Shown here in pieces: positions 8,495 through 53,040 of a stretch of 64,000 nucleotides of DNA (within the stretch, counting starts at the first letter, position 1; each line of letters opens with the position of its first letter). The notes below the pieces were generated by a model. That model was not told where the DNA came from. It made no database searches and saw nothing but the letters and a program-made list of their open reading frames with translations. The position numbers and the translations under genes are program-made. Source of the DNA: Nitrososphaeria archaeon (GTDB lineage Archaea > Thermoproteota > Nitrososphaeria > Nitrososphaerales > JANXEG01); the NCBI GenBank assembly GCA_029775915.1, contig JARVKA010000001.1, positions 98,594 through 162,593 on the forward strand, read 5' to 3'.

Positions 8495-11158
8495 GTGAAT
8501 AATCGAATGGTAATAACTAAAATGAAGAGCATAGCATTAATAATTACTTTCACATTAATCTCCCAACTCATTCCTATAGGAATCGCATCTACTTCAACTT
8601 GGAGTTATAGTGAGAGGCTTAATTTAACTATACTTGGAAATGATGTATTTTGGGAGTTTGTATTTACGGATGGGAATGTTACTTCAAGCTTACTATCAAA
8701 TGTTGAAAAAGTTCCAAATATTTTAAACTTCAAATTAATTATGGCAAAGTTGGAAGGATGGCTACCTGATTATCATTTAATTCATGAGTTGAAAACCGAT
8801 CAATTACCACCTAATGGTTTAATTCTTAAAGTAAAATCTCTTTCGAGAATTTCTGCTGATAAAATAGCTTCAATTATAGATGTAATATTTAATGTAAATC
8901 TTCAATTAATTGAGTCAGCTATTAATGAATATGTATTTTATTCACCAATAGATTTTAACACATTTGTTGAGAAGCATCTCAAACTTCTTTTACCTAAATC
9001 ATTAGGAGGTCTTAGCCTCTTATTAAGTGAGAAAATGCTCACTAGTGAAAAGATAGGTATTATTACTATAACTGCTAATAAATCGAATACGAATTTTCAA
9101 TATTCAATAAGTATATCGAGTGTGAAGCAAAACTTTATTAAAGATGAATTAGATTTATCAAAACTCTTCCCACTTTACAGTAAAATAAATGCCTCCCAAT
9201 TCTCTAATTCATCGATTATTTATATTAAAGTTCTTGGAGGCTTCATCGATTCAGCAAGTATTGGAAAGGTTGAAAATAATTTACAAAACTTTACTTCACA
9301 ACTCTCATTAATATTACAACCAAATAAATCACTCCCTCATCTTACTATCAAAATCATTAATGATTTTCCTTCATTAATTGCGATTCGCCAAATCGATAAA
9401 GGTTCTGTTAATTTGAATGAAACTATTGAGGTTCGAATTAAATTAAAAAATATCGCCCCGCCCAATGCTCCTCCTATTGAAAATATTCGTATAAATGAAG
9501 ATTGGTGGTTACCATACTTTGAAAAAATAGCTGGTGAAACATCTTTAACCATTCCACGTATCGAATCGGGTGAAGAGAAAATTATAGCGTATATGTTAAG
9601 AGCAATTTCACCATTAAGCATTACAATTACTCAATCATCATTTAAAAACTTAATCACATACTCATATAAAATACGTGATAAAATAGTTAATGCGAGTACC
9701 CTTTTGAATCAAGCTGAAGTTTCATTAAATACTCTTCGTTCAGCCATACGTATTGAAGCATTTACAAATTTATCAAGTACGCCTTTAGCGTCATCATTAC
9801 CAATAAACTTAACCGTGATTAATTATGGTAATAGAGCTGCTTTTAATCTTAAAATCTACTCTGATGGAATTTTATTAAGTGAAATTAACACCTTACTTCC
9901 TAATCAACGTTGGAGTATAACTACAAATGTAAGTTCAAAGTCTTTAACTAATATAAGTTTAGTTAAAGGATGGTTGGTAGAGTGGCTTTCAAATGAAGAA
10001 GTGAGAAAAGCGGAATCAAATACTATTACCTTCTTTAATCGATTATCTAAAACAAATTTACCAAGTTTAGCCCTTTCTAAAAGTGCATCCACTTTAAATG
10101 TTAATGATAAGTTATTTGTCAATGTGACTGTTAAGGTTAATAATATAGGTCGAAGTGATTTAAAGGATATTGTTGTAGAAGATTCTATCCCTATTGGATT
10201 AAATTATGTAAATGGAAGCTTCATTTTTGCAAATGGGCGTATACAAGCAAAAATTTCAGAACTTAAAGTTGGTGAGAGTAAAATTGTTAATTATTTAAAT
10301 GAAGTTGTTAATAAAGATGAGAATTATGTATTTCCTCCAGCTATTGCTAATATTAAATGGTTTAATTCAACTTTTCATTACATCTCTACATCATCTGGTT
10401 TGCCATTAGGTATAAGTGTTGAGAAATTCCTTTCAATAAATGAAGGATTCATAGGTATGAATACATCTGTATTGGTAAAGGTTACGAATAAAGGAAGCAA
10501 ACCGATATTTAATTTAATTATACAAGAACAACGGGATTCATCTTTAAAACCTATCCTTGATATTACTAAAGGGAATCAAAGTATTTTAGCTAGTGGTGAA
10601 ACTTCCCAAATGAATTATATAGCGAGAATGGATCGAATTGGTGAATTTAAAACATCAAGCGCAATCGCTCAATTTATATTTGCAGGGATGTTACAAAGTA
10701 AAGAGAGTAATACACCGATTGTAAAGATTCACAAAACTCCCATTGTGAGTTTATCATTTAATCCTTCACAATCATTAGAGGGAAAGGATTTTGAAGCTAT
10801 ACTTGTAGTGCATAATCCATCTCAACTTCAAGTTTTTAATATCTCTGTAAAGACTATACTTCCATCGAGCTTAAAGATTATTAAAGGCTCATTAAATCTT
10901 ACTCATTATAGTTTAAAACCTAATGAAAATATTACATTAAAAGCGAATTTGATAAGTTATTTAGCGAATAGTTATCAAATTAGCAAACCGATTTTAACCT
11001 TTATCTATGAAGGGCAGAATTTAATTGGAAACTCAAATGAAGTTAAAATTACTATAATGGAAGATCTTTCAAATAGATATGGTATTCCCATCGCAATCGC
11101 TCTTTTAATGTCTTTAGTTACGGTTATTATTGTGAGGCGAATAACATACTCTACTTAA
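8495..11158 (+). CDS. Large cell-surface protein (N-terminal signal/anchor, C-terminal TM anchor, CARDB/DUF11-like beta repeats, sequon-rich)
   Basis: 887 aa with a hydrophobic N-terminus (IALIITFTLISQLIPIGIAS) and a C-terminal TM helix (IPIAIALLMSLVTVIIV) followed by RR. Repeated beta-sandwich-like segments: IEVRIKLKNI, VTVKVNNIGRSDL, VLVKVTNKGSKPI, AILVVHNPSQ. Many N-x-S/T sequons. Confidence 0.6.
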   Translation: MNNRMVITKMKSIALIITFTLISQLIPIGIASTSTWSYSERLNLTILGNDVFWEFVFTDGNVTSSLLSNVEKVPNILNFKLIMAKLEGWLPDYHLIHELKTDQLPPNGLILKVKSLSRISADKIASIIDVIFNVNLQLIESAINEYVFYSPIDFNTFVEKHLKLLLPKSLGGLSLLLSEKMLTSEKIGIITITANKSNTNFQYSISISSVKQNFIKDELDLSKLFPLYSKINASQFSNSSIIYIKVLGGFIDSASIGKVENNLQNFTSQLSLILQPNKSLPHLTIKIINDFPSLIAIRQIDKGSVNLNETIEVRIKLKNIAPPNAPPIENIRINEDWWLPYFEKIAGETSLTIPRIESGEEKIIAYMLRAISPLSITITQSSFKNLITYSYKIRDKIVNASTLLNQAEVSLNTLRSAIRIEAFTNLSSTPLASSLPINLTVINYGNRAAFNLKIYSDGILLSEINTLLPNQRWSITTNVSSKSLTNISLVKGWLVEWLSNEEVRKAESNTITFFNRLSKTNLPSLALSKSASTLNVNDKLFVNVTVKVNNIGRSDLKDIVVEDSIPIGLNYVNGSFIFANGRIQAKISELKVGESKIVNYLNEVVNKDENYVFPPAIANIKWFNSTFHYISTSSGLPLGISVEKFLSINEGFIGMNTSVLVKVTNKGSKPIFNLIIQEQRDSSLKPILDITKGNQSILASGETSQMNYIARMDRIGEFKTSSAIAQFIFAGMLQSKESNTPIVKIHKTPIVSLSFNPSQSLEGKDFEAILVVHNPSQLQVFNISVKTILPSSLKIIKGSLNLTHYSLKPNENITLKANLISYLANSYQISKPILTFIYEGQNLIGNSNEVKITIMEDLSNRYGIPIAIALLMSLVTVIIVRRITYST

Positions 11159-19249: not shown

Positions 19250-19558
19250 TCACATGTATGGTCTTCTTTCCCCTCTTTCAAGTAATTCAGGTCTCATACC
19301 TTTTTTAGTAGCCTCTATATCAAATTCTATATAACTCAAAGCAAATTCTTTCAGCTTTTCAAAAAACTCTTTTAATGTCGCTTCATCAAACATTGACATA
19401 AGTGAAGGGTTGGATAACCATTGTAGCCATCCCAAATTACTACGGCCTATCGCATTTATACACTCAAAGCAAGCGCTAATGTAATCTAATCGATCTTTTG
19501 GAGATAGTTTACTAATTCTCTCTTTTGCCTCTTCCCTACTTTTTATCCAATCGGACAT
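19250..19558 (-). CDS. Hypothetical helical protein
   Basis: 102-aa ORF in clean intergenic context. No motif recognised. Confidence 0.4.
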   Translation of the reverse strand: MSDWIKSREEAKERISKLSPKDRLDYISACFECINAIGRSNLGWLQWLSNPSLMSMFDEATLKEFFEKLKEFALSYIEFDIEATKKGMRPELLERGERRPYM

Positions 19559-19615
19559 AAAATCACCATAATTTTTAATTATGAACTATCTTAAATTGCT
19601 TTATGTAGCTAAATT

Positions 19616-20080
19616 TTATTTTTTAACTTCGTAAAGATAAATTCTACGCCACTCAACCTCTTTTATACGAATTGGTTTCCAACCCCGAATTTCATAATTA
19701 TGTGAAACAACACGAGTGCCCGACTTAAGCTCTTTCTCAAGCTTCGGCTTAACAATTTCATTTCCACGTTCAGTTAAGTATAAAGTCACAACATTTGCAT
19801 CAGAAATATCAACATTCATAAAATCGCCATGAATCACTTTAATCTTATCTTCAAGATTTAACTCACGAATTTTATCAATCGTTCTCTTAACTAAACTCTC
19901 ATTTAACTCAATACCTATAGCGCGTGCACCAAAATCTTTAGCTGCAATTATCAATATTCTACCATCACCCGAGCCCAAATCGTAAAGCAACTCTCCAGCT
20001 TTCAACTCTGCTAACTTAAGCATTTCATATACGACCTTTTCTGAGCTTGAAACAAATGGTGCGAGTGACAAATTTATCAC
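19616..20080 (-). CDS. Class I SAM-dependent methyltransferase
   Basis: Motif I LYDLGSGDGRILI, with an acidic residue after beta-2 (IGIELN). 154 aa. Confidence 0.8.
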   Translation of the reverse strand: MINLSLAPFVSSSEKVVYEMLKLAELKAGELLYDLGSGDGRILIIAAKDFGARAIGIELNESLVKRTIDKIRELNLEDKIKVIHGDFMNVDISDANVVTLYLTERGNEIVKPKLEKELKSGTRVVSHNYEIRGWKPIRIKEVEWRRIYLYEVKK

Positions 20081-20127
20081 CGTTGGGACATATCGATGTT
20101 TAGAAGTTTAAATCTTTTTCTAATAAC

Positions 20128-21365
20128 GGTTTTGGTGCATCTTCGAGTGTTGAGTGGTAAAACTTAAAATAAAATACCCTAAATTATTTCCGTACTCGCA
20201 GTTAAAGCATTCAGAGCCTATAGATGATTTGCTGGAAACTTTCAGAAGCATGGTTAACGAAGCTGTTAGAGTTGCCTTAGAGCAAAGGATAACGTCAAAG
20301 TTCACACTCATCAAGACGGTATATGAGTCGTTCAAGCGCTATGGTTTGCATACCCATTATATTTTGAGCGTTTGTGAAGTGGCTTATTGGCTTATCAGAA
20401 ATAAAAAAGAAGGAAGAACCCATACATTCACAAAGCCTTTGAAGCTTGATAATCAAACCTTTAAGATTGAAGGTGGCATCTTAAGAATCCCAATGAAACC
20501 AAGGCAGTTCCTTAAAATTCCTTTAGGAATCGGCGAATACCAGAGATGTTTCTTATTTGACTCCACGCTCAAAAATAGGCTCAGTCATCGTGAGTGCGAG
20601 CACAGTTACGGTGGTTTTCTCAAAGACCCTGAGGTGATTGAGCCTAAGGGATACGTGGCTATAGATACTAACGAGAAGTCTTGACTGTGCAACCAGCAAA
20701 GGAGAACTTTTCAGGTATGATTTGAGTTGCCAAGGATTCACCACGTATACTTTGAAAAGCGTAGGCGTATTCAAAAGGAGTTTTGGGGAGATGGAAGAAA
20801 GTCTTAAAAGCTTTAAGTCAAATACTGTGAAAGGGAGAAACACAGAACTGAGCAATTAATGCATTTGGTTAGTAAAGACATTGTCAAGCAAAGGAAAACA
20901 ACTTTGGAATAATCTTGGAATAGATAAGATACATCAAAACATCAGTTAACCAAAAGGTTCTCAGTATGAACAAGTTTAACGGAAAACTTCAACGAATAAG
21001 CAAATACTCAAAGAAGCTTAAGTGGAGACTTAACTCTCGGGGCTTCCGAAAACTTCAAAACTCCATCGAATACAAAGCTAGATGGGAAGGCATGCCTGTC
21101 ATCTACATGAATCCAAAAGGTACCTTGCAGACTTGCCCGATATGTGGCTATAGAGAAAAGCGGATGGGCAACTGTTCAGATGCTTTAAATGCGGATGGAT
21201 AGGCACTTAAATGCTGCTATAAACCTACTCAAAACTCAATATGACTCGCTGGTTCGGTGAGTATAGCCTCCCACATGTAGCTGTGAACTATCCCTTAAAC
21301 AAGGCAGGAAGCAGAAGAGGTGAAGGTACACTTCATCACTCAACACCTGAAGATGCACCAGAACC
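20128..21365 (+). mobile_element. TnpB-type (IS605 OrfB-like) insertion element with terminal inverted repeats and target-site duplication; tnpB decayed
   Basis: Left end GGTTTTGGTGCATCTTCGAGTGTTGAGTGGT (20128-20158). The reverse complement of the right end (21335-21365) is GGTTCTGGTGCATCTTCAGGTGTTGAGTGAT, a 27/31 match. The element is flanked by direct repeats CTAATAAC at 20120-20127 and 21366-21373. Confidence 0.75.
20154..21240 (+). pseudogene. tnpB: tnpB (OrfB, RuvC-like RNA-guided nuclease family) pseudogene with several frameshifts
   Basis: Fragments lie in three frames. 20154-20684 is the N-terminal part, ending ..GYVAIDTNEKS. 20966-21202 carries the zinc finger (..[26 protein letters not shown]). 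After another shift comes [12 protein letters not shown], the RuvC-III D-x-NAA-x-N motif, at about 21200-21240. Confidence 0.7.
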
Positions 21366-22673
21366 CTAATAACAATTTATTCCATTTATTCTAATGTATG
21401 GACCACCTTCAGATATTGGATACCCTTTTTCCACATTCGGTCTTAAAAAATACTCTTCACTTATCGCATCTATCTTTTGAAGATCTTCAATATTTCCTAT
21501 TATTCTGAAGTTTTTAATGGGCTTTGTGATTCGCCTCCCTTCAATAAGATAAGCTATCTCAGGTATAATTTCTATTCTACCATTCGTAGCGTCAATTTCA
21601 GCTCTAATTATACCTTCTGTAAAAATACCATATTTAGTCTCTTCAAATATTTCTTTAAACTTCCAATCTGAAGGTTTAATAAATATGTTACTCATCATAG
21701 GTCTTGGTTTATGTGTGATACCGTGAGCATTACCCGCTACTTCACCAATCTTAGCCGTTAACCTTGTATGTAAAAGATTTATACCATCTTTTGAGATTAA
21801 GCACTTTCTTAAACTTTTAACACCCTCATCATCCCAATAAAAAGAACCGTACCCATTGATTAATGTTGGATCGTCTATAATTTCTAAATCATTTAAATTG
21901 AAATTGGCAAATAACTTACGTTGATAAATATCCGCCTCGAGCATATGAGCAACTTCATGTGCGATCGCTCCAGCTCCTTCATAATCTAAAATTACTTTCA
22001 GCTTTTCACCATTAAATTTTGAAGATGAAGCTTTAGAAGAAGATTTAGCTCTCTTCACTAAGCCTTCTATAATTTCATCCCATGATTGTTGTAAAATTAT
22101 TTCATAACCACCCATTCCTCCAATAATTTTACTTGAATATCCTTGTGCGTAATCTTTAACCAATATGTAAATTATCATTTCAATAAGATGCTTACATTCT
22201 TTTACATACGTACCTTCAGATGAGATAAAGTTTGACTCTAAATCGTGATAAGAAAGGATTAACTCTGATCTTGTATAAAATTGAGCTAATAAATCTTTAA
22301 TTTTCTTCTCTATATCCCTTAAGAATCCACATACTTCATTAATTTCTAATTCTTTCTTTATAGGATGCTCAAATTCACCACGCTCTACATTAATAGGAAT
22401 AAGATTAGCATTACTCTTACATATCTTAGCTTGCTTAATTGCAAGTTTATGCATTTGTTTCACATAATCCATATCAAAATTATCGGTTGATACTACACCA
22501 TAACCACCATCAACCATTGCTCTACATATTATGCTTTTAGAAGAATGTTCATAAATATCAAATGACTCACACCTTAAAGCTACTTCAAAATCCTTTTGTT
22601 TAAAGATTCTAAAATCAGCATAATCTACAGAAGATTCATTTAGAATATTGGTAAGCTTATCTATATCGATCAT
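21366..22673 (-). CDS. TldD/PmbA-family metalloprotease
   Basis: 435 aa with AIAHEVAHMLE metal-binding motif and family-typical length. The stop codon lies inside the 8-bp target duplication of the adjacent IS. Confidence 0.8.
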   Translation of the reverse strand: MIDIDKLTNILNESSVDYADFRIFKQKDFEVALRCESFDIYEHSSKSIICRAMVDGGYGVVSTDNFDMDYVKQMHKLAIKQAKICKSNANLIPINVERGEFEHPIKKELEINEVCGFLRDIEKKIKDLLAQFYTRSELILSYHDLESNFISSEGTYVKECKHLIEMIIYILVKDYAQGYSSKIIGGMGGYEIILQQSWDEIIEGLVKRAKSSSKASSSKFNGEKLKVILDYEGAGAIAHEVAHMLEADIYQRKLFANFNLNDLEIIDDPTLINGYGSFYWDDEGVKSLRKCLISKDGINLLHTRLTAKIGEVAGNAHGITHKPRPMMSNIFIKPSDWKFKEIFEETKYGIFTEGIIRAEIDATNGRIEIIPEIAYLIEGRRITKPIKNFRIIGNIEDLQKIDAISEEYFLRPNVEKGYPISEGGPYIRINGINCY

Positions 22674-51976: not shown

Positions 51977-53040
51977 GTGTTGATTATGATGTAATTATCG
52001 TAGGTGCAGGTCCAGCTGGCTCATCTGCAGCTATAAGTTGTGCTAAAGTAAATTCCAAAACACTACTTATTGAACGTAGTTTTTTTGGTAGGCATAAACC
52101 TTGTGGCGGTATTTTACCACCAATTACCCTTTACATCTTTGATGAGTTAGGGATAAATATACCTTCAAAAGTTTTTTGCAATCCTAAAAGCCTTAAGCTA
52201 TTTTACATACCTCCAAGTGGCAAGTTGAATGGAGGAGCTTTAAAATGTTACAAACTTCTCAATATTAATAGAGATTTATTTGATAAATGGTTGGTTGAAG
52301 AGGCTTTAAATAAGGGTGTTGACTTTCAAACAAACTCAACTGTAATATCATTTAAACAAGATGATGATAATGTGGAGGTAAAGTTAAGGTGCCGTGATGA
52401 AAATATAAGAGTAACTGCTAAATATTTACTTGCAGCAGATGGTACTCATTCAATTATAAGAAAGTGCTTTGAAGGGGCTTATCAAAAATTTTTAATCATA
52501 ATGCAAGAATATTGGAAGTGTGAGGGCGAGTTTGAAGATTGTTTTTATACCATTTTAAGTAAAAGAATAACACCAACTTATGGTTATGTTGTGCCGAAGG
52601 ATAACGCCATATTAATTGGAAGTGGTGCTAAAGACTTAAAACAAAGTATTCAAAGTTTAGAGAACTTAAAGAATTGGTTGAAAGAGGAATTTAAATTCAA
52701 GCCCCAATCTTTAATTAAAAGGGAAATTGGTTTTATACCATACGATAAATGTTTTATCGGAATGGGTCGAGTTATACTATTAGGTGACGCTGCAGGTTTT
52801 TGCAATAAATTCTCTGGTGAAGGTGTAAGATTCGCACTTGAAAGCGGATTGATAGCATCAAAAGCGATAGAGGAAGCTGAGAATAAGGGTGTTCAAGTTT
52901 CTGAAGCATACGCTAAGAAAGTTCAACCTTTATTAGAATTTATAGAGAAGACTAAAAGTATCATCAATATAGATACTGATAAGTGGAGAGAAGAGTTCGT
53001 CTTAAATGAACTTAAGCGCTTGAATATTTGGCAAAGATAA
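51973..53040 (+). CDS. Geranylgeranyl-reductase-like FAD-dependent oxidoreductase (LipT-like)
   Basis: FAD motif DVIIVGAGPAGSSAA, and GDAAGF near the C-terminus. 355 aa. The 4-nt start/stop overlap with lplA indicates co-translation. Confidence 0.65.
   Translation: MSVDYDVIIVGAGPAGSSAAISCAKVNSKTLLIERSFFGRHKPCGGILPPITLYIFDELGINIPSKVFCNPKSLKLFYIPPSGKLNGGALKCYKLLNINRDLFDKWLVEEALNKGVDFQTNSTVISFKQDDDNVEVKLRCRDENIRVTAKYLLAADGTHSIIRKCFEGAYQKFLIIMQEYWKCEGEFEDCFYTILSKRITPTYGYVVPKDNAILIGSGAKDLKQSIQSLENLKNWLKEEFKFKPQSLIKREIGFIPYDKCFIGMGRVILLGDAAGFCNKFSGEGVRFALESGLIASKAIEEAENKGVQVSEAYAKKVQPLLEFIEKTKSIINIDTDKWREEFVLNELKRLNIWQR

Follow-up and report, generated by a model that had tools for sequence, protein, structure and literature searches.

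The stretch of DNA analyzed here, referred to as the window, comprises 64,000 nucleotides (nt) of contig JARVKA010000001.1 from a Nitrososphaeria archaeon (assembly GCA_029775915.1), whose genome is 99% complete, has a G+C content of 34% and belongs to a 1.47-Mb archaeal lineage. At window positions 20128-21365 lies an element of 1,238 bp, delimited by reading the region directly, which is bounded by terminal inverted repeats (TIRs) and flanked by a target-site duplication (TSD), and whose sole gene is a broken tnpB. The insertion occupies a short spacer, with the stop codon of a TldD/PmbA open reading frame (ORF; 21366-22673, minus strand, Pfam PF19289 at 1e-30) on one side and, to the left of the element, the promoter side of an S-adenosylmethionine (SAM)-methyltransferase gene (19616-20080, minus strand) on the other. 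The features of the element and its immediate flanks are:

20117-20119, plus strand: TTT, abutting the left TSD on its 5' side; candidate target-adjacent motif (TAM), with TTD as the family consensus
20120-20127, no strand: left 8-bp TSD, CTAATAAC, identical to 21366-21373 and present as one copy in the empty site of genome G001
20128-20158, plus strand: left TIR, starting GGTTTTG, 27/31 identical to its partner; the GG at positions 1-2 and the G at position 7 are as in the IS6/IS26 consensus
20154-21260, plus strand: tnpB pseudogene, from three-frame translation, Pfam PF07282 and tblastn against an intact relative
21214-21365, plus strand: predicted omega-RNA-like scaffold, from covariance model R1, built without the window
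21335-21365, minus strand: right TIR, reading GGTTCTG inward, 27/31; this end point is shared by a solo remnant on contig C7
21366-21373, no strand: right 8-bp TSD, holding the TAG stop of TldD/PmbA (minus strand)
21366-21385, plus strand: putative omega-RNA guide template (the duplication and about 12 nt more), placed according to the canonical TnpB layout

The left end (20128-20158, GGTTTTGGTGCATCTTCGAG...) and the reverse complement of the right end (21335-21365, GGTTCTGGTGCATCTTCAGG...) are identical at 27 of 31 positions and form the longest inverted repeat in the region, and CTAATAAC is found immediately outside both ends. The empty site is preserved in a genome of the same genus (G001), where the left flank runs up to C33:9066 and the right flank resumes at 9073, with a single TCAATAAC between them; the 8-bp duplication in the window is thus real. 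The position of the boundary is also recorded within the host genome itself, in a 72-nt right-end remnant on contig C7 (C7:61211-61282, equivalent to L002:1500-1571, minus strand) that is 82% identical to window 21295-21365. This remnant comprises the 3' half of the predicted omega-RNA scaffold and the TIR, and since its similarity to the window is lost exactly after ...CAGAACC, the 8-mer that follows in the window is target DNA and not part of the element. Neither tnpB nor a left end was found near the remnant, and the genome holds no other full copy of the element. Together, the 8-bp duplication and the TIRs show the footprint of staggered, DDE-type strand transfer, and not that of the Y1 (IS200/IS605) or serine-recombinase (IS607) mechanisms, by which tnpB is usually moved. 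A sequence-only reading of this DNA had already reported the 1,238-bp element, its 27/31 TIRs, the flanking direct repeats and the TldD/PmbA stop codon in the right repeat, all of which direct reading confirms. It also took the repeat similarity to sit at the element boundaries and the 8-mers to be duplicated, in agreement with both the C7 boundary and the G001 empty site. Its view of the ends as a DDE-type footprint is supported by the empty site and by the TSDs of the wider family, and can be refined to IS6-like DDE ends.

The gene is spread over three frames. In translation, the N-terminal domain and RuvC-I (DTNEKS) share one frame, RuvC-II (GIILE) and the CPICG zinc finger share another, and RuvC-III returns to the frame of the N-terminal part, which is regained after a second frameshift. 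The earlier description of a tnpB broken into at least three frames, with the zinc finger and RuvC-III still readable, therefore holds, and the gene matches Pfam PF07282 (Cas12f1-like TNB) at 1e-12. In a tblastn comparison, residues 9-318 of the 372 of an intact relative align in two frames, interrupted by at least five in-frame stops and at least two frameshifts. In 10 intact relatives D166, E250, D336 and the four zinc-finger cysteines are invariant, and these motifs can still be read in the broken window copy; one intact relative reaches 123 bits on NCBIfam guided_TnpB, for which the cut-off is 100. With numerous stops and frameshifts in tnpB, diverged TIRs and not one unbroken IS6-like transposase gene in the genome, the window copy is today an immobile fossil.

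With regard to the surroundings, TTTAAAT at 20107-20113, directly left of the insertion site, resembles a TATA box and lies about 27-33 nt upstream of the GTG start of the methyltransferase gene (minus strand). The element landed between this box and the TldD/PmbA stop, and neither gene is broken. The C7 remnant is located downstream of a 223-aa coiled-coil/nuclease-like ORF. At C8:38788, 16 nt identical to part of the TIR were considered as a solo end; they fall inside a 279-aa ORF, in which they encode Gly-Ser-Gly-Ala-Ser, and were treated as chance.

A family of solo-tnpB elements and their predicted omega-RNA

A scan of species-representative genomes recovered 294 related loci, mostly in metagenome-assembled genomes (MAGs) labelled Nitrososphaeria/Thaumarchaeota and Bathyarchaeia, and some in Asgard archaea. 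One locus, L171, from the unpublished genome G197, was excluded from all end analyses. TnpB relatives in Thermoproteota and Asgard MAGs are 39-49% identical at the amino-acid level, and the intact relatives in genomes of the same order, at 39-45% identity, each have their own inverted repeat, GGTTCTG..., at both ends. Elements of the family measure 1.2-1.3 kb and carry tnpB alone between GGYTCTG... TIRs. BLAST searches with the window ends returned no matches to distant relatives; the likeness of the ends emerged only when each locus was searched for inverted repeats of its own. A clear GGYTCTG TIR pair could be assigned at 29 loci, 14 of which have a TSD matching at 8/8 positions and a further five at 7/8, while none of 116 shifted control comparisons exceeded 5/8. 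When right ends were set by the covariance model described below, 18 loci had a perfect 8-bp TSD and six matched at 7/8. The duplicated 8-mers differ in every relative, which indicates independent insertions. These results show that the window element belongs to a large archaeal family of solo-tnpB elements with TIRs and 8-bp TSDs. The pairing of tnpB with IS6-like ends is widespread in archaea and barely described.

Some members of the family depart from this pattern. At L106, L125, L139, L140 and L120 the TIRs match at 19-23 of 24 positions and the flanking 8-mers are unrelated, which could reflect either an exchange of flanks by recombination between copies or intramolecular events of the IS6 type. 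One relative (L097, contig CAZALZ010000017.1) comes from a MAG labelled Gammaproteobacteria in a clade that is otherwise archaeal; a binning error or a transfer could account for its placement.

The 3' ends of these elements share more than their TIRs. An alignment of the last 150 nt of 17 relatives contains conserved blocks and three covarying helices, with G-U pairs found in the tnpB-sense strand. Paired cells reach 79% in the relatives, compared to 57% in shuffles (0/500 reach the observed value) and 31-44% with slid partners, and the covariation score is 0.54 against 0.06-0.18. In the window, helix 1 would pair 21244-21249 with 21256-21262, helix 2 would pair 21266-21271 with 21316-21321, and helix 3 would pair 21325-21332 with 21352-21359, its 3' arm lying inside the right TIR; in the relatives, an upstream segment likewise pairs with right TIR positions 7-14. 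Both in the window and in its relatives the helix 3 hairpin occurs at the right end only. Its absence from left ends points to a feature of the RNA and not to a symmetric transposase site. The window helices are partly eroded, helix 3 retaining six of eight pairs, and model R1 matches the window over its full length at 21214-21365 (36.8 bits, E 3.3e-7), the last base of the match being the end of the element. The same model matches 60 of 69 further relatives, in every case in the same sense as tnpB, and its matches stop at TSD-confirmed element ends. Thus, comparison of sequences shows an omega-RNA-like scaffold at the 3' end of tnpB, with the right TIR predicted to double as the 3' arm of the last stem. 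The stretch of about 21240-21365 that had been proposed as such a scaffold, overlapping the right TIR, is contained in the model match. The C7 remnant is beyond the reach of the model at E <= 1, and an Rfam search of 19500-22000 at permissive E-values gave chance-level snoRNA and miRNA matches only, with no known family. A weak model match elsewhere in the window (52800-52940, 10.8 bits, E 0.44) was set aside as being at chance level.

The flanking TTD motif and a homing model

When 25 independent insertions are oriented by tnpB, position -3 from the left duplication is T in 23 (binomial p 8e-10), position -2 is T in 22, and C is absent from position -1; slightly further out than this TTD comes an A-rich run, and neither the duplication nor the right flank shows any conservation. 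The window carries TTT at this place (20117-20119). We infer that TTD is a candidate TAM of TnpB.

TTD could also have nothing to do with TnpB and represent either a target preference of the transposase or the survivorship of insertions in AT-rich, promoter-proximal spacers. In keeping with such an explanation, the flanks are rich in A and T and have TATA-like TAAA runs slightly further upstream, and the TTT of the window lies next to the TATA-like box of the methyltransferase gene. However, the motif is strictly one-sided relative to the direction of tnpB, the right flank being unconserved, and it is mostly missing from DDE-only elements with the same kind of ends, being present in two of 11 of these as opposed to 20 of 25 tnpB elements (Fisher p 8e-4). 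It also occupies the very position required of a TAM for a guide that starts at the right end. We consider a TnpB-independent origin of the motif unlikely, if by no means far-fetched.

With TTD as the TAM, the layout of the element suggests how it may have spread. An omega-RNA guide would start where the scaffold and the element end, and would be made up of the duplication and the downstream flank. Given such a guide, an unoccupied allele reads TTD followed by the target, the arrangement that a TnpB TAM requires, and the occupied allele, in which only 8 matching bases follow TTD, would be spared. An intact TnpB with its omega-RNA would cut unoccupied alleles in which TTD stands directly 5' of a guide-matching sequence, and the element might then be copied into the cut allele by recombination (homing), a step that is less certain than mobilization in trans. 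Insertion itself would be supplied in trans by an IS6-like DDE transposase encoded elsewhere, with the duplication of 8 bp of target.

IS6-like ends and the candidate mobilizing transposase

The TIR consensus of IS6/IS26 is GGTTCTGTTGCAAA, in which the GG and G7 are nearly universal, and insertion is accompanied by an 8-bp TSD; archaeal members assigned to IS6 have longer TIRs, of at least 18 bp (Harmer and Hall 2019, PMC6807381). The window ends, GGTTTTG and GGTTCTG, and the family consensus (GGYTCTGTTAAC.TCTTCGG) fit the GG, the G7 and the 8-bp TSD. Four DDE_Tnp_IS240 (PF13610) remnants are present in the host genome, among them one at C2:282543-283230 (L034:1354-2041) that is bounded by GGCTCTGTTA(A)CTT... 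ends and an 8/9-bp duplication. The same GGCTCTGTTA(A)CTT... ends and an 8/9-bp duplication are found around an IS6-like remnant without a PF13610 match at C10:10081-10715 (L142:582-1216). The transposase genes of the host's IS6-like remnants are all broken, and their best NCBIfam matches are to IS6/ISC774. A further short IS6/ISC774-like element, with GGCTCTGTTA(A)CTT... TIRs, an 8/9-bp duplication and a broken transposase gene, lies at L035:225-751.

Other archaea encode a long-form IS6-like enzyme of about 380 aa, which combines a SWIM domain, an IS1/IS1595-type zinc domain, a helix-turn-helix (HTH) and DDE_Tnp_IS240, and which occurs in 87 of 201 genomes of one class (the one count that includes G197). 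Eleven of 29 long-form loci are elements of 2-4 kb with GGTTCTGTCAAGTCTTCG-type TIRs and perfect 8-bp TSDs. The ends of these DDE elements match those of tnpB elements over up to the first 18 bases, the full length of this agreement being seen between L192 and L067, and the ends of L176 resemble the GGTTCTGG... ends of the window. No tnpB was found within the long-form DDE elements. Conversely, tblastn with 31 IS6-like ORFs against about 100 tnpB loci turned up no DDE gene in cis, the IS6-like copy at L077 being a neighboring, separate one. Among order-level genomes, PF13610 is present in nine of 11 that have tnpB of this clade and in 15 of 50 without it, a co-occurrence that is suggestive only, since related genomes are not independent. 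From these results we infer that an IS6-like DDE transposase encoded elsewhere moved the element in trans; the long-form enzyme, whose own elements have near-identical ends and 8-bp duplications, is the most promising candidate type. The sequence-only reading had offered a choice between an unusual TnpB family and a non-autonomous element mobilized in trans, and with a family of this size and no transposase in cis, both options hold together. It had also proposed a search of the genome for intact copies and for a DDE transposase with matching ends: there is neither another full copy nor an intact IS6-like transposase, and what is present is the C7 right-end remnant and broken IS6-like copies with a partial match of ends.

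Long-form elements such as L159:1125-3242 and L156:1057-3387, at 2-4 kb, are far longer than their 1.1-kb transposase gene, and they carry extra small ORFs, several of which are membrane-spanning-like.

Several observations weigh against mobilization of this kind. The window TIR agrees with the host's own IS6-like ends (GGCTCTGTTAAC...) at only about 11 of 18 positions, the host genome has no intact IS6-like transposase, and a search of it for the long-form enzyme gave no match. A search of a MAG with two tnpB copies that have identical TIRs turned up no DDE element with the same ends, only two complete TIR pairs and four solo ends. Several relatives have good TIRs and no TSD. Classical IS6 movement leads to cointegrates, which is a poor fit with simple chromosomal insertions. 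In addition, a transposase without a preference for TTD leaves the position of the insertions beside TTD unexplained; such positions may reflect either selection by homing or targeted insertion.

The remaining difficulties concern the identity of the mobilizer. The long-form transposase falls just under the NCBI IS6 cut-off (116 vs 125 bits) and has an IS1/IS1595-type zinc domain together with a secondary IS1 match of 66 bits, and Harmer and Hall have questioned whether archaeal "IS6" elements belong to the IS6/IS26 family at all (PMC6807381). The mobilizer might accordingly come from some other DDE family (IS1-like or ISMhu11-like) that has GGnnnTG ends and duplications of 8-9 bp, or from a separate archaeal family, and not from IS6 proper. 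Against this, the best Pfam and NCBIfam matches are to IS240/IS6 for every candidate, the host genome has no match to PF03400 (IS1 DDE), and the TSD is 8 bp in all clean cases. We find a mobilizer from outside IS6 distinctly doubtful.

Taken as a whole, the evidence is best explained by a dead, non-autonomous tnpB/omega-RNA element with IS6-like TIRs, moved in trans by an IS6-like transposase and, while its TnpB was intact, possibly served by TnpB homing, and we regard this as probably correct. A more specific proposal, which we put forward tentatively as a possibility short of even chances, is that this tnpB lineage became fitted to an IS6-like DDE transposon. The right TIR would act as an arm of the omega-RNA stem, the guide would start with the duplication, a TTD TAM would lie just outside the left duplication, and homing would be that of a non-autonomous element whose transposase, in trans, is probably replicative and leaves no excised donor site. 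If true, TnpB would be used here for homing rather than for restoration.

Relation to known TnpB systems

TnpB is thought to persist by restoring or homing transposons that excise without a scar, such as IS605 and IS607. The present family raises the question of what role the nuclease might play for a transposon that leaves no clean empty donor site. TnpBs associated with DDE transposases are of a kind already published: the main text of Altae-Tran et al. (2023, PNAS, PMC10691335) ties six TnpB branches (DDE-1 to DDE-6) to DDE transposases, all with inverted terminal repeats, and proposes that solo TnpBs with the same ends are mobilized in trans. As in those branches, tnpB lies here between inverted terminal repeats, with its 3' end less than 250 bp from the transposon end. 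Unlike what that main text describes, with IS630 as the sole DDE partner named, the present elements have a probable IS6-like partner, an 8-bp TSD, TTD outside the TSD and a TIR predicted to serve as an omega-RNA stem, and no transposase in cis. A 2026 review lists ISL2, IS630 and IS1031 as DDE partners and regards prokaryotic OMEGA systems outside IS605 and IS607 as uncharacterized (PMC13565253). We found no paper that pairs an RNA-guided TnpB with IS6-like ends, in a literature search that left the 2023 supplement and ISfinder outside its scope; a paper on Haloquadratum IS1341 elements deals with classical, hairpin-ended ones.

Fanzor proteins, the eukaryotic TnpBs, offer a parallel when carried by DDE transposons, as RNA-guided TnpB-type nucleases on transposons with TIRs and TSDs. 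In Fanzor1 the TAM includes the 5' TSD and the scaffold includes the 3' TSD (PMC13565253). The 8-bp TSD of the present family shows no sequence conservation; the conserved motif is found beyond the TSD, and the scaffold model stops short of it. With IS6/IS26 the element shares TIRs with GG and G7 and an 8-bp TSD (PMC6807381). Members of IS6 are, however, 0.7-0.9 kb long with one DDE transposase gene, and the window element carries tnpB and a predicted omega-RNA and no transposase; without a DDE_Tnp_IS240 gene it cannot be filed as a member of IS6 proper.

Two further origins would place the element in families in which TnpB is familiar. It could be an IS607-type element that has lost its serine recombinase, its GG termini representing the GG crossover dinucleotide; the ends do start with GG, and a decayed IS607-like element exists in the same genome (C4, ~40.7-42.1 kb). 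Yet serine recombinases give duplications of 0-2 bp, not 8 bp, and IS607 lacks TIRs (PMC6188088, PMC13565253), while the window element has both TIRs and an 8-bp TSD, and the C4 tnpB shares with it only a weak similarity over 97 nt, all of which makes such an origin very improbable. We give next to no credence to an ordinary IS200/IS605 (IS1341-group) element, moved as single-stranded DNA (ssDNA) by a Y1 TnpA beside a 4-5-nt target motif and without TIRs or TSD (PMC13565253), in which case the likeness of the ends and the 8-mer would be coincidental, as with a target motif that happens to recur where the right end is cleaved. In favor of this origin, tnpB is the signature cargo of IS200/IS605, where most solo tnpB genes are filed, and TnpB with a 3' omega-RNA ending at the right end is what the IS1341 group has, but the G001 empty site shows a true duplication, the C7 remnant shows CTAATAAC to lie outside the element, the 8-mers of the relatives are all different and yet duplicated, the ends are inverted repeats and not co-oriented subterminal hairpins, with a hairpin at the right end only, and the 99%-complete genome has no match to PF01797 (Y1_Tnp).

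By its sequence, the element has the features of a TnpB/OMEGA system, namely the RuvC D-E-D triad, the zinc finger and a structured, predicted omega-RNA that stops at the right end. It lacks the defining features of IS200/IS605 and of IS607, and has the ends and TSD of IS6 without a transposase; we therefore file it as a non-autonomous, IS6-like-ended TnpB element. The layout of the family points to compact archaeal, partly thermophilic TnpB/omega-RNA pairs with a short, T-rich candidate TAM. The value of the window copy lies in the clean proof provided by its empty site and in the extension of the family to another archaeal lineage.

Finally, the IS607-like relic on contig C4 (L003:374-1782, ~40.7-42.1 kb) is unrelated to the window element; it contains the C-terminal part of an IS607-type serine recombinase and, after it, a tnpB in three frames. 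Mobile elements of both kinds, the window element and this relic, have decayed in the host genome.

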